From Octopus vulgaris (lineage: Eukaryota), in assembly GCA_951406725.2 (NCBI GenBank), contig OX597820.1:22196001-22260000 (forward strand): a stretch of DNA of 64,000 bases. The letters run 5' to 3'. The position numbers were made by a program, and so were the translations under genes. Shown here in pieces: positions 4,295-62,287 of the stretch. Each line of letters begins with the position of its first letter. The stretch's first letter is position 1. The notes below the pieces were generated by a model that saw only the letters and a program-made list of their open reading frames with translations, did not search any database and was not told the origin of the DNA.

Positions 4295-5140
4295 CTAGCA
4301 GAATTGCCCGGCGTTGCTCGGGGCTGAATTGCTTGAAAGTACTGTTAATGATTGCACTGAATTATGATGATTATTCAGGCAAATATTGAAATAAGCTTAC
4401 GGTGGGAGATAAGGACTTAACGCCAAACGTGTGCCATTGCATTGTTTTGGGGGAACCAAATTTCTGATGAGCATTATAGGGGCACTAACTTTAAGTTTGA
4501 GAAAGTGTGGTGGTAGTCCGGGGTGCTCAAAGGAATTGAGTACCTCTATTGGATAGTTGATGACGTCCTCTGGGTCAGGAGTTGTATCGATAGACTGATA
4601 TACATCGACTTCCCCAGGAATGAGTTTTAGCATTTCATCATTAATATGGTGAACAGTTTTATTCCTCGGGGCCAGTATAGCCTTTTTGCCAATCCAATCC
4701 ATATTCTGATAATTAGCTTGTAAATCTGGGAACACTGCATCTCTGAGATCAGAAGGCGTCTTAACAATGGTACAAATGGAATCGATGGCAATATTACCAT
4801 TTTCATCCCCCGGTATTTTGCCTTCGCCAAGTGCAAGGAGAGTGTGAGGAAATGCTGGTGATGTGATATTACGTCGCATATGAGCACGCATATTGGTGTG
4901 AAGTTTGAGAGTTACTTCCGTTTATTTTTTAAAATATGCATTAAAATGGAAAAAAATGATGGTAAATTATTTGTAAAATCATAGACTCATCGTAGACGCG
5001 CGCTAATACCCAGAAGGGCTCGATATGAATCACGACTATAAGATACCCGGTTTTGGTTAAACTGCATCGCAAAATGTGGGAGTAGTTAGGAATCTAAATC
5101 GGAGTAGACAGACACACAACCTTTCTTTTATATATAAATA
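4295..5140 (-). mobile_element. Internally deleted Helitron retaining both termini and a PIF1-family helicase fragment
   Basis: ORF 4397-4891 has Helitron helicase motifs (KAILAPRN..INDEML..PG..YQSIDT..YPIEVLNS..PGLPPHFLKLKVSAPIMLIRNL..CNGTRL). 3' hairpin CCCGAGCAACGCCGGG plus CTAG|T. The 5' ~220 bp match the element at 31324. Confidence 0.85.
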
Positions 5141-31323: not shown

Positions 31324-31698
31324 TCTTTATATATAAAAGTCAAGTTGTGTGTTTGTCTCCTACGATTTAGATTCCTAACTACTCCCACATTTTGCGGTGC
31401 AGTTTAACCAAAACCGGGTATCTTATAGTCATGATTTATATCGAGCCCTTCTGGGTATTAGCGCGCGTCTACGATTTAAAAAACAATTTACCATCATTTT
31501 TTTCCATTTTGATGCATTTTTTCGTTATTTAATAAGGGAAGTAACTCTCTAAAAGTGTCTACGATGAGTCAACGATTTAAAAAAAAATTTACCATCATTT
31601 TTTTTCCATTTTTAATGCATTTTTTGGCTATAACTCTCTAAAAATGCTTTATAGTTATTTCCCTTACAAACCCGAACAACGCCGGGCGATACTGCTAG
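31324..31698 (+). mobile_element. Non-autonomous Helitron (375 bp) at an A|T site
   Basis: 5' TCTTTATATATAAAAG, 3' CCCGAACAACGCCGGG..CTAG followed by T; internal ~90-bp duplication; absent from the paralogous position near 46950. Confidence 0.85.
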
Positions 31699-32318
31699 TG
31701 ATTAATAAAACACGAAAAGGGCAACGTAAATTTTATGACAGCATCGGTTTCCTCGTCTCCGTTTTCCCCTACCTTATATAGCTGGCATGCATCTACCACC
31801 TTCTGTTCACCCACAGCTACATCAAGCTACACTCAACTTACACACCTACTTCTACCGCTTCCTTATATTTCTTACCATCACCACCACCACCACCACCAAC
31901 ATTATAGTCTTCCATATTTTCTTACTTTGGTCGCTCTTTCCTCGAATATCATCGCATTTCTCACCTCCTCCTCCTCCTTCCACTCCGTCTTCCTCTCTTC
32001 ATCCTTTTCCCCCACTCTTGAATTTCTTCCTCATTTTTCTTACCTATTTACTTCCCTTTTCCTTCCTAACATGCCTTTCACCCTCCCGCCCTCTCTCTCT
32101 CTAAAACTATTTCTTGTCTTACTTTCTCTCTCCTTTTCTCTTCTTCTACTTCTAATTTATATCGCTTGTTACTCTCTCCAATATCTCTCTTTCTTTCTCT
32201 CCTCCTCCTCCTCTCTTTCTCCTCCTTTCTCTTTTTCTGTCTATCCGTCTCCTATTATCTATCTATCTATCTACCTATCTTTCTATCTATATATCTATCT
32301 ATCTATCTATCTATCTAA

Positions 32319-32372
<54 letters not shown>

Positions 32373-32385
32373 ATCTATCTATCTT

Positions 32386-32417
<32 letters not shown>

Positions 32418-32483
32418 CCTATTTATCTGTCTATCTGTCTGTCTATCTATCCCACACACACACATCTTCTCTCTCTCTCACTC

Positions 32484-32548
<65 letters not shown>

Positions 32549-32818
32549 ATCCTTTCATCTCAATTCACCTTTCTTATGTCGTTATTACACCTTACTCAAT
32601 CATTATTTTTCTTTGCTTATTTTCATATATACTTCAGTTTTTATCGGTTGGGGCAGCGCCTTCCTACTTTTGATGCAGAAATATTTAATCTTGCCAGTAA
32701 TAAGTGGAAACTTATAGCTTGTTACTCTTGTCTATTTCAGCTACCACCCTGCAAGAATGCAAACCTGCAAACTCGCATACACATATCCAAATGCTCAAAC
32801 TGATATGTATACTTATAA

Positions 32819-32876
<58 letters not shown>

Positions 32877-32965
32877 GGATATATATAAATTTATACATAT
32901 GCATATATATATATTTATATATATATATATATATTTACATATTTATATATACATACACATATATA

Positions 32966-33018
<53 letters not shown>

Positions 33019-33125
33019 TTATGAGTACATATATTTATACAAATTCACAGAGATATGTTTCATGTAGCCAAGATAGTTGCTCTAATTAATGGCATATGTC
33101 ACGAAAATCTACATGAATCTCTGTA

Positions 33126-33203
<78 letters not shown>

Positions 33204-33207
<4 letters not shown>

Positions 33208-33363
33208 AAAAATACAGAATATACACACACATATGGACATACACACTCGCACGGACACACACACACACGCACGCACGCACGCATGCACACACACATGTAC
33301 ATGTATGTATGTATATATATATACACACACATGTATATGTAAGTATGTATATATATATATATG

Positions 33364-33401
<38 letters not shown>

Positions 33402-33510
33402 CACGTAATTATATATCAGGATTGCTAATCACAACTACTGGACCTACACTGTGTAAATAATACAACCCGAACAGACACGCGTGCATACACACATACACAC
33501 ACAGATATAG

Positions 33511-33541
<31 letters not shown>

Positions 33542-33551
33542 CTCACACATC

Positions 33552-33625
<74 letters not shown>

Positions 33626-34050
33626 ACAGATCGTGTGAGACAATGAAAAGAACGATAAACTAAAGTGACCCCATAGGCAAAGAATTGTATGACAGTTTAA
33701 TTTGATTCACTTTCGTTTCTGTAGCATAAACTATTTCTATGAGCAGCAAACTTTCGTTGCAAATTTTTCAAATTTTTCAAAACCAAATTTATGCGTACTT
33801 TGCCAGGAATCGATCACAGTAATTTTTTTACTGTGGACAGTTTGTTTGGTTGACGCTGTGGCGTAAAGGAATTACAAAAATACAGAATATACACACACAT
33901 ATGGACATACACACTCGCACGGACACACACACACACGCACGCACGCACACACACATGTACATGTATGTATGTATATATATATACACACACATGTATATGT
34001 AAGTATGTATATATATATATATGCGTTTGTGTGTGTGTGTGTGTGTGTGT
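33204..34050. repeat. Near-identical ~185-bp direct repeat (33204-33390 and 33872-34050)
   Basis: TTACAAAAATACAGAATATACAC..ATGCGTTTGTGTG occurs twice. Confidence 0.8.
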
Positions 34051-34192
34051 ATGTGTGTGTGTTTATATATGTATGTGTAAGATGCGTATGAATATACATA
34101 TAATGTGTGTGTAATTACATACACACACACATATATATACATATATACATACACATATATATGTATACATTCATATATATATATATATATGC

Positions 34193-34223
<31 letters not shown>

Positions 34224-34233
34224 TGTATGTATG

Positions 34234-34293
<60 letters not shown>

Positions 34294-34494
34294 TACACAC
34301 ACACATACACATACACACGGGCACAGATATAAATGGCTGGGTAGGTGTACGTATAGGTGTGGTACATCTGGCTGTATTATGGCGAGCAGTATTTATAGAT
34401 AACACGTAAATGCTGCTGTGTGTTCAACTCTGTACTTGAAAGTGTGCTTCGGTGTATGTATGACTGCATTTCACAACTGATCTCCAATTAAACC

Positions 34495-34613
<119 letters not shown>

Positions 34614-34943
34614 ATATTAATGTAGGATATAGCATATATAGCATATATAGTAAAATGAAATGAACTACGGTTGAAACATTCCTGTCACAACCTGGGACCT
34701 TGAAGACCTTGCTTAAATGCAAGAAAGTATACTAGTCCTTTAATATTTGATATTCAATATTTCATCTATTCAATAAGACAATCAATACTTTATTTCATTT
34801 TACCATGTATACTAAATATACTATATATACTATATATCTATATCCTACATTAATATTATAAGAATATAAATAGAACATGAAAAACAGACAGAGTTGGAAT
34901 TCCTTTGAATAATATATTCCTCTATATACAATCATACAAAGCC

Positions 34944-35029
<86 letters not shown>

Positions 35030-35298
35030 GTTATAAATTCTGATCGAACCACCGATTGTCGGAAAAGTTTCTGAAACCATTCTGAAACGCATACTGACTC
35101 GAAATCAAGTTATTTCATAAGCTTGTGTGCCTTGTGTGCCTTGTACCATTTTCGGTGAATTCCAGATAGTTGTAGAGTTGTTGCTGCGGCAGTCGAGAGG
35201 TGAAATGCGTAAATAAGTTAATCAATCTGTCTCAGTTCTTGCACATTTTATTTAAAGAAATGTTAGTGTAAAGAGCTAATAAGAATGGTTTGAGCCTT

Positions 35299-35346
<48 letters not shown>

Positions 35347-35907
35347 CGTTTTCGAAAATGTTTGTGTATTAATTTCCACATACTTTTCAGTTATTTCTAC
35401 ATAAAACGAAATAAACAAATAAAGTTAATACAGACGATAAGAACTGGTAGATTCTAAGTTTACTTCGAATAAAAATATTCGTTGAAGATATTTTTTTTCT
35501 CGTTATTAAAACTTTTTTTAAAAATTGGACGTTTATATATAGAAACCAAAAATGTTCTTCTTCATTTAAGAAATATTCATTATTGACAGTATTTTTTTTT
35601 TTCTGTTTTCTGTTCATATTTGCAAAACATGCGTAGCTGCTTATGAAAGTTCAAATATATAAACACTTTGAAAAGCAGGACAAACATGCATGTTTACATA
35701 TGTAAATACATACATAAATAAATAAATACCTGCATGCATGCACGCATTACTGTAATTTGTTGTAAGTTAATTATAATTATTTAACATTTAATTATAATTT
35801 AAACAAGCAACAAAAAAGTTCGAAATGTCTGGGCGGTAAAATTTCAGAATATAAACAAAATATTTTCGTAACTCACAGTATAATAAATAACTCCATACAC
35901 ACACACA

Positions 35908-35994
<87 letters not shown>

Positions 35995-36076
35995 CGAAAC
36001 ATTATCAACAGATTTTTTTCTACATATAATATAATGCAAACAACTGAATTAATTGTTTTTAATTAACTAAAATATC

Positions 36077-36135
<59 letters not shown>

Positions 36136-36531
36136 CAACAACAACAACAACAACAACAGCAACAGCAGCAACAACAGTAGACGTTCCAAATTTTGGGACA
36201 AGGCCAGTAAGTCTTTTTAGGGGAAAGATATTAGTCGATACCGTCGACCCCAGTACTTCCCTGGTACTTTATTTTATCGACCCTGTAAGGATGAAAGGCA
36301 AAGTCGACCTCGAAGGGGAGATACTTGAAATGTGGTGGATAACAAATAAGTTTTATAAGAAATAAAATTACAAACCAGTACAAGAATAGGTGTTTTCACA
36401 GTGTTAAGCGGCACCGAGAAGCCATAACATGAAATTTTTGCGGAAATAGTTTTTTATTTGTCTTTACGTTTTTATTCTTACAAAAGTTTGTTGTTGTCGT
36501 TGTTTTGTCATTTTTCTTCGTTTTCCCGGTT

Positions 36532-37047
36532 TTAATCAACCATTTGGTTGCAGGCCTCTTCTAAATCATCACACATAGTTTTATATTTCGCCTGTTCATC
36601 TCCGAGTTCTTTTGTAAGTTTGTCGATATCATTCTCAAGTTTTTCGACATTTCGTTCAGCCTCTAACGCCCTGCTTTCAGCTGATTGAAGCTTTGTAGAA
36701 TCATCCTCGGCTTGTACTCTTTTCTCTTCTAATAAACCTTCTGATCGGGAAAGATCCGATTCTAAAAGATTGATTTTACGGTTTAGATCTTGGGTCTCGC
36801 TCTCCGTCTCGGACAGTTTCTCTTCTGTATATCGTAATAAGTCCTGTGTTTTCTCCAACTGACCAGTTAATTCATCAAAATCTCTTTCTAAATTTCCATG
36901 CTTCTTCTGAAGCCACGCCAGTTCGTCATCAACTTTCTTTTTCTCTTCTTCCAACTGTTGGTATTTGTTCGAAATGTCTTCAGCTTTTTCCAAAGCGTTT
37001 ACTCGCTCCAGAATCAAAGCATTCATTTTTTTCTTGCACGCTTCCAT
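36532..37047 (-). CDS. Tpm: Short, intronless tropomyosin-like protein (171 aa; about 4 actin-binding periods)
   Basis: Uninterrupted ORF. N-terminus MEACKKKMNAL..ERVNALEKAE resembles canonical MDAIKKKM..; internal LQKKHGNLERDFD and LNRKINLLESDLSRSE; C-terminus AESRALEAERNVEKLE..KYKTMCDDLEEACNQM resembles the tropomyosin C-end. Continuous heptad pattern with no Pro; AAAC-ATG start context. Confidence 0.9.
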   Translation of the reverse strand: MEACKKKMNALILERVNALEKAEDISNKYQQLEEEKKKVDDELAWLQKKHGNLERDFDELTGQLEKTQDLLRYTEEKLSETESETQDLNRKINLLESDLSRSEGLLEEKRVQAEDDSTKLQSAESRALEAERNVEKLENDIDKLTKELGDEQAKYKTMCDDLEEACNQMVD

Positions 37048-37297
37048 GTTTACTTATATATTCTAATATAAGAGCCACGCGTTAACTTTCAAATCTAAAG
37101 TTAAGATATTCCGGTAATATATTCCAAAATATATATATATGATTTATTAAGCACAGTCGAAGTGCTTCTTTGACTCCGAGGAGAACAACTTAATGAATCT
37201 GTAACAGAGCCAGAAGTGGTTGTAACTGCTTGATCAACTAACGTTAGCTACTTCTGTGTATCACTAACGTATGAGAGTTACCTACCTTGATTTATAC
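37048..37297 (-). promoter_or_regulatory. Conserved 5' UTR/core promoter of the 171-aa tropomyosin
   Basis: Blocks shared with 50953-51207 (plus-strand text): CACGCGT, GCTTCTyTGACTCCGwGGAGAA, AACAGAGCCArAAGTGGTTGTAACTG, ATCAACTAACG, GAGAGTTACCTACCTT. Inr-like GCAGTT on the sense strand near 37227. Confidence 0.55.
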
Positions 37298-43559: not shown

Positions 43560-44488
43560 AATAATAATAATAATAATAATAATTGTGTACAGTGCTCAGG
43601 TGCACTAAACTCATCTAAAGTGTATATATAATCAGGTGTAGTTTCGGCGGATTTCGGAAAGCATGAGGGCCTTAAAAGATGCAGTGTCATGGCAGTCAAC
43701 AACTGACGCAGGCAGTTTATTCCATGCTTCAGCAACTCTGAGCGTGAAAAAATATTTCCGAAAGTCATGGGAGCTGTATTGTTTTCTGACTTTGTAGGCA
43801 TGTCCACGTGTGTTAGACACATGGAGATCAAAAAGGTGTTCAGTGTTGTTGTTGGTGAGGTGGTTGATAACTTTGTGGGTGTTTACCAAGTCCGTCGCCA
43901 AACGCCGGAGCTTCAGTGAATCCATGCCCAGGGAAACAAGGCGCTCAGAATATGGTAGGTGTCTGATGGAGGGTATGCGTTTGGTTGCACGTCTCTGGAC
44001 AGATTCCAGGAGGTCAATGTTCTGTGCAAGATAGGGGTTCCAAACTGATGATGCGAATTCCAAGTGTGGTCGTACCATAGCTGTATACAGTTTTAAATAG
44101 ATGGCTGGAGAGCGGCTAACAAAAGACCTGCTGAGTGATGCCAAGACACCCTCGGCCTTCCTGACAATCTTAGAGATATGCTTTGACCAACGCAAATCAC
44201 TGCTGACAGTGATGCCTAGGTCACGCTCGCAAGAGGATTTCTTGATATCAGTGTTGTGGAGGGAGTAAGTGAACGCAGGGTTTTTTCTCCCAAAATGCAT
44301 GGTGGTACACTTGTCCACAGCCAGTTTCAGTTGCCAGTCTGTGATCCATTGCTGCATTGTGTCTAGGTTTGATTGCAGGAAAGAGTTGTAGACATCAGGA
44401 TCTGTCCTCTTGATTTCAAGGTACAGCTTGATGTCGTCTGCATATTTCAATACTGTGGCATTCTTTAAATTGGCATCTATGTCGTTAT
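43560..44488 (-). mobile_element. 5'-truncated young CR1-group LINE (open 272-aa RT C-terminal frame)
   Basis: NDID..LKYADDIKLY..WQLKLAVDKC..ERDLGITVSSDL..VRPHLEFASSVWNP..LESVQRRATK..RVAEAWNKLP; (ATT)n tail. Confidence 0.92.
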
Positions 44489-46334: not shown

Positions 46335-47632
46335 CGTGCGTGAGAGAGAGTGAGAGAATGAGAAGGTGAATGAGTGAGTGAGTGAGTTTCTTTTAGATTA
46401 TCGCTATAATGTATAAATAAAATATATCATAATCTGTGTTACTTTCTTTAATTTCCTGCCTCACAATTTGACAGACATACCTCACATATTTACTAATTTG
46501 CTATATTCCTATGTCTAACTAACAAATTGACTAAAGCAATGTATTCAGCATATAAAAAAAAAAAATACCTCTACCGCCCACAAGAATTTCAAAACTATTT
46601 CCTCTGCATTTGTTCATCACCTACACTAAACTCGCAGTCGCCCACTTGTGCTAAATATCGCCCGGGGTTGACAAAATCCTGAGTTAAGAGCATTGGCAAA
46701 CATTTGAGTTATTTCCCCTTAGTTCATATTTTACGAAGTTTCTATTATCTCAAATTTAGGAAAAGGAATTCTATCGATTATCTCAAACTTTGCTAGTGCA
46801 AACTTTATTAATTTCATGCCTCTTCTTTCTTTCTCAGGAACGGTGAAATAAAAGATGATTCGGCCGGATAGGGGCCTTGTAATTAAAGATATATTACTAA
46901 GTACTGCTGAATTTTCTTATCAGACGTTCTTACATGCATCAAATAATGTAAGTAATTGATAAGACGCGAAAAGGAGCAACATAATTGCTATGACAGCATC
47001 GGTTTCTTCGTCTCCGTTTTCCCCTACCTTATATAGCTGGCATGCATCTACCACCTTCTGTTCACCCACAGCTACATCAAGCCACACTCAACTTACACAC
47101 CTACTTCTACCGCTTCCTTATATTTCTTACAATCACCACCACCACCTCCACCACCAACATTACAGTCTTCCATATTTTCTTACTTTGGTCGCTCTTTCCT
47201 CGAATATCATCGCATTTCTCACCTCCTCCTCCTCCTCCTCCTTCCACTCCTAAACGCCACTCCGTCTTCCTCACTTCATCCTTTTCCCCACTCTTGAATT
47301 TCTTCCTCATTTTTCCTACCTATTTACTTCCCTTTTCCTTCCTAACATGCCTTTCATCCCCCCCCCCCCCCGCCCACTCTCTCTCTCTCTCTCTAAAACT
47401 ATTTCCTCTCTCTCTCTTACTTGCTCACTGATGTTAGAATCTCAGTTTATTTTCTTTCACACGTAACTTAAATTTCTTATTTCCCCCACCAGCATTCTCT
47501 CTCTCTTTCTCTTTCTCTCTCTCTCTTTCTCTCTATCTATCTATCTATCTATCTCTATCTCTCTTTCTTTCTTTCTCTTTCTCTTTCTTTCTCTCTCTCT
47601 AATTTTCTCTTTCTTTCTGTCTCTCTCACTCT

Positions 47633-47764
<132 letters not shown>

Positions 47765-48463
47765 CATTTCTATTAAATGTTATATCTTCATTTTCTTATT
47801 CTTTGAGTATATGTATATGCGTGTATGAGTGTATGTGTGCGTGTGTGTGTGTGTGCCCCTTCCTCTATCTATCTATTTGTCTATCTATCTATCTATCTAT
47901 CTATCTATCGAACAATCTATCTATCTATCTATCTATCTTATTCTCGTTCTTTTCAACTTACCTTTCCGTTGTAGTAATTACACCTTGCTCAAAATATTTC
48001 TTTCTTTCAGATGTTTTTCTTACTTTTTCTTTTTTACATCAGGAGGGCCATCTTTCTAGTTTTTAATGCGAAATCTTCAATCGTCCCACAAAGAAGTAAA
48101 AACGTATAGCTTATAGCATTCGTCTGTTTCAGCTACCACCCAGCGAGAATAGGTTTAAAGGAGCGACGAAGAAAGCGCTTTCCAGAATTTATAATTTCTG
48201 ATCTTATTGATACTAACTTTCATCCCTCTGGAATCGGTAAAACAAAGTAGGAGTCAAGTATTAGGGTCGATGGTATCAACAGGCACTCTCCCTACAAAAT
48301 TGTTAGCTTTGCGCCAAAATTAGACAGGGCCATCATAATCATCATCATTATCAACATCATCATCATCATTATACATTAATCTATGTAGGCAGGTATGTAT
48401 AATTGCATAAGTATGCATATGTGTGTATATATGCGTACGTGTGTGTGTCAGAGAGAGAGAGAG

Positions 48464-48551
<88 letters not shown>

Positions 48552-50322
48552 TGTACGTGAGAGCTATACTTAATTGTATTTTGACGGCAGTATTTATAGA
48601 TATCGTGCAAATAGCGCGGAGAGTATAATCCTTCCTGTATTTGGGAAAAGTCGTCGTCGTCGTCGTCGTGGTTGTCGTTGTTGTTGTTGTTGTTGTTCTA
48701 ATGAGCGTCTCTTGTAACTTTTCTCCAATTAAATGTTTAAAAACCACCAAAGAGATTTCAGCGGAACACAAGTTGTTTTAGGAAAATTTTTTTTCGAAAT
48801 CTCTTTGAAAAAGTAAACCACAGCCAGAAATGAGGTTATTTTCTTAAGTGTTGCGTTTCTTGGGCCATTTTAGCCATTTTTCAGTGAATTCTAATCAGTT
48901 GTTGCTGCTGCAGCCGATATATACAATGTATAACCAAGATAAGCAATCCTTCAAACATCTTGTGTATTTTAAGTTGAGAAATGTTGGAATAAAGAGCTAA
49001 TAAAAACGTTTGTATGTTTGTTTGTTTTCAGAAATACATGCACATTGGCTTCCAGATAATTTTCTATTTTCTTGTTTTGTTTTTACCATAAAAATATAGA
49101 AAGAAAGTTAATACTGTCCAAAGTGAGTAGTCGTTTTATGTCAGAGCATAAGTTTACTCGGAATAAAATATTTTCGGAAGACATTTTGATGGCTGTTTCT
49201 CTGTTGATGTTCATTTTTTTAAAATCCAGTCGATATTTAATGTTTTAATGGGAAACAAATACGAGCTTTTTTTTCAAACAAGGAAGATTTATTGTTCACA
49301 GAATATGGCCATTGAAATTATTTCAGATTTGTTTGTAAAAAACATACGTAGCTACATACATAATTTCAAAAGATTAGTATACACGCATATATACGTGCAT
49401 ACATATGTTCATACATACATACATACATACATACATACATACATACATACATACATACATACATACATACATACATACGTACGTACGTACGTACGTACAT
49501 ACATACATATATACATACATGCATACATACATAGGTGTTAAATTACATACATAAATATATGCATACATATATACACATTCGTGCTTACATATGTTCATAC
49601 AAGCATACTGGTATGAGCATACAAACATATATGCATACACGCGTGTGCAATTATGTACATAAAACATACATACATACATACATACATACATACATACATA
49701 CATACATACATACACCTTCCTTTATGTATGTATGTATGTATGTATATATACATACATGCATGTATGCATATATGCATAGATACATGCATGTATGCATATA
49801 TACATACATGCATACATACGTATATGCAAACATAACCTTCCTGTGTTAAGTTTAACATAGTTATTTAACAATTAACAATAATTTAACAATTAACAAGCAA
49901 ACAAGTTGAGAACGATTTGGGTGGATAAAAGTTCAAAATATCAGCAAAAGCTTTCATAATTTAAAAGCAAATGAAAGAAATAATTAACTTAATTTTCATA
50001 TATTTTTTTAAAAATTAACCTACCACTAACAATAATAATAAAAGCTGCTTGAATTGTGTAGCGTAAGATTTGAGTGTCATAAGAAAATGTAATACGAACC
50101 AGTACAAGATACAATAATTGGGTATTAACACTGTCAAATAATGACAATGAGTAAATCGTAACATTTTTAAAGCAATTACTTAGATTTGTCTTTATGCATT
50201 ATTCTTGCGTGTTTTTCGTTTGTTTTTTTTTTCAGGGAGTGGGGGAAGATTGTTTTGTTTTTGTTTTTTGTTTTGATTTTTGTGGGGTGGTTAGATAAGC
50301 TCAGCTCTTAATCATAACTGTT

Positions 50323-50952
50323 CTAATCCATCATTTGGGAGCACGCTTCATCCAAATCTTCGCACAAAGTTTTGAATTTTTTCTGTTCTACTTCGAGCTC
50401 TTTCGTGAGCTTTTCGATATCATTCTCAAGTTTTTGGACATTTCGCTCAGCTGTCAATGCCCGATTCTCGGCAGACTGGAGCTTCTCGGAATCCTCTTCG
50501 GCTTGCACTCTTTTCTCTTCCACTTGACTTTCAGATCGGGTAAGATCTAATTCTAAAAGATTGATTTTTCGGTTTAAATCTTGTGTTTCGCTCTCTGTCT
50601 CCGATAATTTCTCTTCTGTATATCTCATCATGTCCTGTGCTTTATCTAATTGGACAGATACTTCATCAAATTCTCTTTGTAAATTACTATACTTCTTGTG
50701 CATCCACACCAATTCCTCATCAACTTTCTTTTTGTCTTCTTCCACCAGCTGGTATTTAGCTAAACTTTCGTTCAAATCATCGTTCTCTTTCTCCAGAGTT
50801 CCATACTTTTTCTGTAAAAACATATAATCGTCTTGAATTTTATCGCGTTCTTCTTCAACCTGCTTTAGCCTTAATTCCAGTTCCTCGGCTTTTTCCAGAG
50901 CATTTACCCGATCTGCGACTAAGGCATTCATTTTCTTCTTGCACGCTTCCAT
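50323..50952 (-). CDS. Tpm: Short, intronless tropomyosin-like protein (209 aa; about 5 actin-binding periods), paralogue with a 38-aa internal duplication
   Basis: Intact ORF, 82/105 identical to the 171-aa copy over the C-terminal part by manual alignment. A 25-aa identical run (RYTEEKLSETESETQDLNRKINLLE) is encoded with many synonymous differences. aa 29-66 and 67-104 are tandem 38-aa repeats. Confidence 0.9.
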   Translation of the reverse strand: MEACKKKMNALVADRVNALEKAEELELRLKQVEEERDKIQDDYMFLQKKYGTLEKENDDLNESLAKYQLVEEDKKKVDEELVWMHKKYSNLQREFDEVSVQLDKAQDMMRYTEEKLSETESETQDLNRKINLLELDLTRSESQVEEKRVQAEEDSEKLQSAENRALTAERNVQKLENDIEKLTKELEVEQKKFKTLCEDLDEACSQMMD

Positions 50953-51207
50953 GTTTATTTGTGTATTTTATATATAAGTGAATCACGCGTAAAAAGTCTT
51001 GGCTCAAATGGGAAAATAATCCGGAAGTTTATTCTGATATATATTTTGGAAAGCACGACTTGGAAACAAGAGCTTCTCTGACTCCGTGGAGAATAGCTTT
51101 GTGAGTCTGCAACAGAGCCAAAAGTGGTTGTAACTGAATAATCAACTAACGATAACCTCTTCAGTGGTTCTCTAAATTTTGAGAGTTACCTACCTTTGTG
51201 TGTATAC
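50953..51207 (-). promoter_or_regulatory. Conserved 5' UTR/core promoter of the 209-aa tropomyosin
   Basis: Same conserved blocks as 37048-37297; Inr-like TCAGTT on the sense strand near 51137. Confidence 0.55.
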
Positions 51208-61451: not shown

Positions 61452-62287
61452 TGATGTCTACAACTCTTTCCTGCAATCAGACCTAGACACAATGCAGCAA
61501 TGGATCACAGACTGGCAACTGAAACTGGCTGTGGACAAGTGTACCACCATGCATTTTGGGAGAAAAACCCTGCGTCCACATACTCCCTCCACAACACTGA
61601 TATCAAGAAATCCTCTTGCGAGCGTGACCTAGGCATCACTGTCAGCAGTGATTTGCGTTGGACAAAGCATATCTCTAAAATTGTCAAGAAGGCCGAGGGT
61701 GCCTTGGCATCACTCAGCAAGACTTTTGTTAGCCGCTCTCCAGCCATCTATTTAAAACTGTATACAGCTATGGTACGACCACACTTGGAATTCGCATCAT
61801 CAGTTTGGAATCCCTATCTTGCTCAGAACATTGACCTCCTGGAATCTGTCCAGAGACGTGCAACCAAACACATACCCTCCATCAGACACCTACCATATTC
61901 TGAGCGCCTTGTTTCCCTGGGCATGGATTCACTGAAGCTCCGGCGTCTGGCGACGGACTTGGTAAACACCCACAAGGTTATCAACCACCTCACCAACAAC
62001 AACACTGAACACCTTTTTGATCTCCATGTGTCTAACACACGTGGACATGCCTACAAAGTCAGAAAACAACACAACTCCCATGACTTTCGGAAACATTTTT
62101 TCACGCTCAGAGTTGCTGAAGCATGGAATAAACTGCCTGCGTCAGTTGTTGACTGCCATGACACTGCATCCTTTAAGGCCCTCATGCTTTCCGAAATCCG
62201 CCGAAACTACACCTGATTATATATACACTTTAGATGAGTTGTAGTGCACCTGAGCACTGTACACAATTATTATTATTATTATTATTA
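61452..62287 (+). mobile_element. 5'-truncated young CR1-group LINE, near-identical to 43560-44488
   Basis: ORF 61500-62216 matches the 272-aa frame after a 1-nt slip in an A-run near 61565; same 3' UTR and (ATT)n tail. Confidence 0.92.

Follow-up and report, generated by a model that had tools for sequence, protein, structure and literature searches.

We identified two short, intronless tropomyosin-like genes in a 64,000-nucleotide window of Octopus vulgaris DNA. We consider it probable that they are a retrocopied, tandem-duplicated pair lacking 112 residues of the canonical protein, in which the 209-aa member carries a stammer-bearing 38-residue duplicate, the 171-aa member has lost repeat 1 by recombination between the copies, and the products would span five and four predicted actins, respectively.

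50323..50952, minus strand: intronless 209-aa tropomyosin-like gene with five predicted actin periods (open reading frame, Pfam PF00261, contigs)
36532..37047, minus strand: intronless 171-aa tropomyosin-like gene with four predicted actin periods and an unbroken heptad register (open reading frame, Pfam, register)

By all sequence tests run, the short genes belong to the tropomyosin family. PF00261 scored 67.6 bits on the 209-aa protein and 70.4 bits on the 171-aa protein (curated cut-off 38.6), and the two aligned over their full length with a single 38-residue gap. Proline is absent from both, the hydrophobic fraction at a/d positions is 0.76–0.84, and a monomer model consists of one helix (residues 2–208, pLDDT 94.9). 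Among the N-terminal 24 residues, 12–13 match the canonical 284-aa protein; the C-terminus is in register with it and one residue shorter, and overall identity is about 40%. The short genes already carry a "tropomyosin-like" annotation in three octopods, and the closest named proteins are counterparts of the 171-aa gene in Argonauta hians (171 aa) and Octopus bimaculoides (193-aa model). The latter model (P0003) has an unrelated N-terminus ahead of the unit and probably a mis-predicted or broken start. At least half of the query words were present in 20 of 24 sequencing runs from nine studies (coded organisms A, B and C; 0/24 recorded as RNA). Own-genome searches with the 209-aa protein, PF00261 and the marine-catalogue protein P0058 as queries, whose counts are lower bounds, returned the two genes, the canonical gene on contig C4 and stop-ridden repeats, with no third short copy, and the 144 kb surrounding the window contained none. 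Among the protein candidates scored (8000 in part of the searches), no other named species showed a 209-type protein, and a metagenome contig scan confirmed 0 of 598 pattern matches.

The 38 residues by which the proteins differ belong to a tandem repeat.

50755..50868, minus strand: repeat 1 (aa 29–66), the more canonical-like and more diverged copy (alignment, canonical mapping)
50641..50754, minus strand: repeat 2 (aa 67–104), corresponding to the one unit of the 171-aa gene (92 of 114 nt identical to that unit)
36850..36963, minus strand: single unit of the 171-aa gene, aa 29–66 (unit comparison)
50765..50885, minus strand: 114-nt block missing from the 171-aa gene, best-supported position, about aa 24–62 (DNA alignment and breakpoint scan)

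When the 209-aa protein was compared with itself, an offset of 38 gave the best match (BLOSUM score 75 over 38 aa; next 56), as did an offset of 114 in the gene (65/114 nt), and 3 of 500 heptad-preserving shuffles scored 75 at any offset. For both repeats, the best window of the canonical 284-aa protein begins at residue 29, with scores of 79 and 77 against 43 and 32 for the runner-up windows, placing both on canonical residues 29–66. Because the copies share one canonical window and score above anything obtained by matching the canonical protein's ordinary periods with one another (best 59), the extra segment is a duplicate rather than retained canonical sequence. The first-pass annotation had proposed tandem homologues at aa 29–66 and 67–104, and this proposal holds together with its coordinates and sequences (aa 29–104 = 50868–50641); the scores contradict the two objections it had raised against itself, that the 38-mers are no more alike than any tropomyosin periods and that the extra segment is retained canonical sequence. 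Its term "exact" is correct for the length of the repeat but not for its sequence, as the copies are identical at 12/38 aa and 64/114 nt, and by these comparisons they are old, diverged copies. It had also seen features of both repeats in the 171-aa unit. The unit is no even blend, being closer to repeat 2 (23/38 aa, 92/114 nt) than to repeat 1 (17/38 aa, 65/114 nt). Most of the features it has from both are ancestral (L46, Q47 and E54 are canonical), although D41, G51, L60 and E35 are common to repeat 1 and the 171-aa unit only. The best single junction for the missing block lies after nt 67–74 (aa 23–25), a few residues upstream of the frame previously assigned.

The genome's canonical tropomyosin was found on contig C4 by a Pfam search of the genome as a multi-exon gene, whose nine exons with AG/GT ends encode 284 aa without stops and are bounded after residues 38, 80, ~125, 164, 188, 213, 234 and 257; the 284-aa reference takes one chosen copy each of alternative exons 4, 6 and 9. 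This gene (106533891–106540230 and 106548434–106550018) apparently has exon 4 in four tandem copies, exon 6 in three and exon 9 in two, with strong divergence among several of the copies, an internal exon paralogy above what we expected of a single gene. Both short genes lack 112 central residues of the canonical protein, with an in-register join at about canonical 118/231 (range 112–119).

50482..50505, minus strand: joining point of the 112-aa deletion, which is in register (two-segment fit to the 284-aa protein)

This deletion was the best two-segment fit in all four short proteins (171-aa, Argonauta, 209-aa and P0058; 339 vs 269 for the 171-aa protein). It spans 16 heptads, and with it go the three basic f-position sites at 125, 167 and 209, leaving a 42-residue spacing. 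As three actin periods are thus lost in register, the short genes are predicted to be four- and five-period tropomyosins, below the usual animal six or seven; Tpm is described as a protein that "generally has 6 or 7 actin-binding domains" (PMC10512467). Exon skipping was rejected as the source of the deletion, exons 4–7 amounting to 109 aa. All four parental intron positions spanned by the short genes (38/39, 80/81, 234/235 and 257/258, each a GT-AG intron in the C4 gene) are empty. Because these introns are absent and the short genes lie on another contig, C7, unlinked to the parent gene, we infer retrocopying, and both genes likely derive from one old retrocopy. Their flanks gave no unique match to the 120 kb of C4 compared, and synonymous sites are saturated.

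A block of at least 4–6 kb was duplicated in tandem. Collinear low-copy matches connect 46943–51196 to 31689–37288 and include an element upstream of each gene, likely a promoter or 5′ leader.

51068..51196, minus strand: upstream element of the 209-aa gene, 81% identical over 129 nt to that of its paralogue, with two matches in the genome (DNA alignment; contigs end at 51165 and 51112)
37160..37288, minus strand: upstream element of the 171-aa gene (DNA comparison)

Another paired non-coding element (46943–47310 and 31689–32030) sits 3–4.5 kb downstream of each short gene; its copies are 89% identical over 358 nt with gaps, have a nearly identical core and are the only two full matches in the genome. 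That they are far more alike than the coding sequences (79%) suggests gene conversion or strong constraint. An Rfam search of 30000–53000 returned no match. Elsewhere in the window, the open reading frames 43632–44357 and 61500–62216 (241 and 238 aa) are near-identical and gave no Pfam match; we take them to resemble the C-terminal part of a LINE reverse transcriptase, and a 164-aa frame at 4397–4891 presumably resembles a PIF1-like helicase fragment of a Helitron.

The a/d core of the 171-aa protein is unbroken throughout. In the 209-aa protein, register scores place the core in phase 0 through residue 64 and in phase 3 from residue 67, in agreement with the earlier argument that 38, being five heptads plus three, brings in a stammer.

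50731..50763, minus strand: stammer region, aa 64–74 (core L64, Y67, V70, K74; register scores and dimer model contacts)

Contacts in a homodimer model of the 209-aa protein step through 63–64, 67–68, 70–71, 73–74 and 77–78, a 3-3 stammer pattern, with at least 98% of contacts agreeing between runs (pLDDT 86). The model scored 0.48 and the best of three controls 0.00, a score that may reflect memory of solved tropomyosin dimers; the score mark was reached by 21 of 30 solved microbial pairs and 0 of 23 singles, and by 17 of 29 eukaryote pairs, 7 of 16 animal pairs and 0 of 30 singles. With an assumed overlap of 9–11 residues, the 209-aa protein has 39.6–40.0 residues per period over five periods and the 171-aa protein 40.0–40.5 over four. 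This arithmetic gives the longer protein the one extra actin period claimed for it, but the evidence presented below favours loss in the 171-aa gene over addition. Twist bookkeeping that assumed 3.63 residues per turn and aimed at about 154 degrees for each period yielded 156–158 degrees for the 209-aa protein, 147–149 for the 171-aa protein, 144–145 for the canonical protein and 151–153 for Cdc8. These values suggest that 38 residues with a stammer would be a geometrically fair way to hold an extra period.

Both proteins quite probably coat actin as cables, covering five and four subunits; retained termini, whole periods, basic f-sites and a dN/dS near 0.08 speak for this, the loss of periods 4–6 and of some acidic contact positions against it. 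Basic f-sites are kept at 6, 48, 86, 128 and 170 in the 209-aa protein (5/5) and at 6, 48, 90 and 132 in the 171-aa protein (4/4). Acidic contact positions are acidic at 9 of 15 sites (209-aa), 6 of 12 (171-aa) and 15 of 21 (canonical), following a pattern extrapolated from period 5, whose residues 167, 177, 181 and 184 are described as contacting actin in a model (PMC4714992). The lost acidic equivalents are V100, T138, S142 and K184 in the 209-aa protein and G62, S100, G104 and K146 in the 171-aa protein.

Two partial marine-catalogue proteins, P0004 and P0058, show the same 38 spacing. P0058 also has the same 112-aa deletion and aligns without gaps to the 209-aa protein from residue 37, with about 43% body identity. 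Both start with Met near 209-aa positions 35–36, with a one-residue offset; the records may be cut short, or the shorter start may be genuine and would then form another route to four periods. In the family tree, which leaves out P0037 and P0061, the short family forms one side of a branch (89/83), within which the 209-aa and 171-aa octopod genes form a clade (100/99) that excludes P0004 and P0058; grouping the 209-aa protein with P0004 and P0058, that is, all two-repeat proteins, was rejected (p-AU 0.02). The 171-aa proteins of Octopus and Argonauta are 86% identical to each other and 75–79% identical to the 209-aa protein, and the gene pair therefore likely predates the Octopus/Argonauta split (clade support 75/55 only).

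The two-repeat form is likely the older, and the 171-aa gene would have lost a copy. Relatives that are only about 43% identical carry the 38-residue repeat, and the one whose sequence extends far enough also has the same deletion, which points to this order. Repeat 1 and repeat 2 differ by a dN of 0.57, and from the canonical sequence by 0.59 and 0.61, respectively; repeat 2 differs from the 171-aa unit by 0.19 and repeat 1 by 0.49, with 0.12 over the shared body of the two genes. Nucleotide quartet site patterns were 11:2:2 for repeat 1 splitting first, as expected under loss, a count that could be raised artificially by attraction between the long branches of repeat 1 and the outgroup. Nucleotide likelihood gave this split a RELL weight of 0.71–0.89 and rejected neither alternative. 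Synonymous dating was unusable, as the body is close to saturated (pS 0.65) and intervals from 38 codons are wide; repeat 2 and the 171-aa unit showed an oddly low pS of 0.32.

The opposite order, in which a 171-type gene is ancestral, the 209-aa gene gained its repeat after the tandem duplication and the marine lineage gained a 38-aa repeat independently, appears unlikely to us. A gain in the 209-aa gene alone was rejected by no topology test (p-AU 0.30, 0.09–0.27 and 0.155; RELL 0.05–0.13), the 171-aa unit lies near the centre of a unit tree that is a polytomy and in whose best version the three repeat-1 copies are not a clade, V32, Y50 and E56 are common to both 209-aa repeats and absent from the 171-aa unit, one-unit forms are the only ones found among O. 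bimaculoides and Argonauta proteins, and two gains take as many steps as one gain plus a loss. Such a gain, however, has 2 quartet patterns against 11. It would also mean that repeat 1 evolved roughly four times as fast as repeat 2 (0.86 vs 0.21) and reverted to canonical L29 and D42, and that one and the same duplication happened twice at a single position. When four histories were tested together, those implying loss in the 171-aa gene (three of the four) jointly took 0.87 of the RELL weight, which left 0.13 for a gain restricted to the 209-aa gene (p-AU 0.155). The tree of repeat copies with outgroups proposed in the first-pass annotation thus favours loss without rejecting gain, and its equation of the octopus difference with the step from yeast Tpm2 to Tpm1 runs against the quartets, the RELL weights and the two-repeat relatives.

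We propose the following history under loss. The spliced mRNA of the multi-exon gene would have been retrocopied to another chromosome. Mapping shows that 112 residues (16 heptads with three actin sites) are missing in register and that the canonical segment ~29–66 is doubled, changes that may have come in either order, and a block of at least 4–6 kb was duplicated in tandem. One copy likely went on to lose 114 nt near codon 24, so that one period and the stammer would have gone together. Both products quite probably form parallel dimers arranged head-to-tail on F-actin as cytoskeletal-type stabilisers, probably of weak affinity, with the stammer acting as a flexible, over-wound point in the long form; for this last step our confidence is good rather than high.

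Two further readings question the products or the repeat itself. The genes may be real without their proteins being actin-binding cables any longer, that is, generic acidic coiled coils in which repeat number is tolerated drift and not length tuning. We regard this as quite unlikely: identity to the canonical protein is low, periods 4–6 are missing, including period 5 with its actin contacts in the published model (PMC4714992), and several acidic sites are eroded, but each length change corresponds to a whole number of periods, the two termini and every basic f-site are retained, the shared body has a dN/dS of about 0.08 (0.12/1.49), and engineered tropomyosins with deleted periods are described as still binding actin (PMC2814127). 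It is very improbable that the repeat reflects faulty assembly, an intron left unspliced or the ordinary periodicity of tropomyosins. The low identity between its copies and a CAG/GT and a CAG lying 111 nt apart inside the block, noted by eye, speak for such an origin; against it, both copies map to one canonical window and relatives encode the same repeat. Moreover, single contigs from two of four runs, belonging to separate studies, run through the whole 209-aa gene and its block free of gaps, joints and coding differences, which excludes an assembly artefact for this gene.

Profile comparison gave E-values of 6e-23 to vertebrate Tpm1 and 0.53–0.69 to the 161–162-aa tropomyosin chains 9ff9 and 8puz, which we take to be Cdc8. 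The octopus proteins map residue by residue on the animal 284-aa protein, against descent from a fungal gene, and their feature-space neighbours, fungal clusters of 154–173 aa, fit a shared length; as judged from sequence, the resemblance to yeast lies in length and not in shared ancestry. The yeast figures cited in the first-pass annotation agree with published descriptions, in which S. cerevisiae Tpm1 (199 aa) and Tpm2 (161 aa) differ by a 38-aa internal duplication (PMC12440208) and span five and four actins (PMC2120352). Going by these descriptions, the octopus paralogues resemble the yeast pair in differing by a 38-aa internal repeat with a predicted five- and four-actin span. Unlike the yeast pair, they derive from a 284-aa animal protein and have a period of about 40, not 38, and their direction was probably from long to short, whereas yeast Tpm1 is described as the duplicated form. 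The match at 38 would be a modest coincidence because there are few lengths (35, 38, 39, 42) by which a further period can be supplied.

S. pombe Cdc8 (161 aa; PMC11626781) is described as having four pseudo-repeats, as in the octopus four-period protein, and a stammer at which local curvature is raised and the pitch shortened; Cdc8 thus combines four periods with a stammer, whereas the octopus stammer lies in the five-period protein and the four-period protein has none. With metazoan tropomyosins of 284 and ~248 aa, the pair shares N- and C-terminal sequence, heptad phase and basic f-sites, and it differs from them in lacking introns and the 112 central residues and in its ~40% identity. Known metazoan internal duplications are described as whole exons used alternatively (PMC3342872), whereas the octopus repeat crosses the exon 1/2 boundary with both copies in one reading frame. 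The engineered delta2, delta3 and delta23 proteins, in which whole periods were removed as 35, 42 or 77 residues (PMC2814127), resemble the octopus deletion in removing whole periods in heptad multiples; the octopus change is natural, takes 112 residues from periods 4–6 and comes with a non-heptad 38 added.

Short or intronless cephalopod tropomyosins had no description in the openly accessible main-text literature searched. What appears to be new here, beyond the existing annotation, is the architecture, that is, yeast-length tropomyosins in an animal. A broader and rather doubtful proposal is that an animal lineage rebuilt the yeast four/five-period system from a seven-period muscle gene, in an old retrogene family whose paralogues have a 38-residue stammer module switched in or out and thereby mark two kinds of actin filament; the length of 38 would have been chosen for correcting both excess length and under-twist. 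If gain were instead the true order, the 38-aa repeat of the marine lineage would be a case of true repeated convergence. As a natural four/five-period pair, nearly isogenic except for one period and one stammer, the octopus genes would offer a ready test of the effect of a stammer on binding, cable stiffness and the gating of myosin or cofilin, and also of whether periods 4–6 are dispensable, which has so far rested on engineered deletions and yeast proteins.
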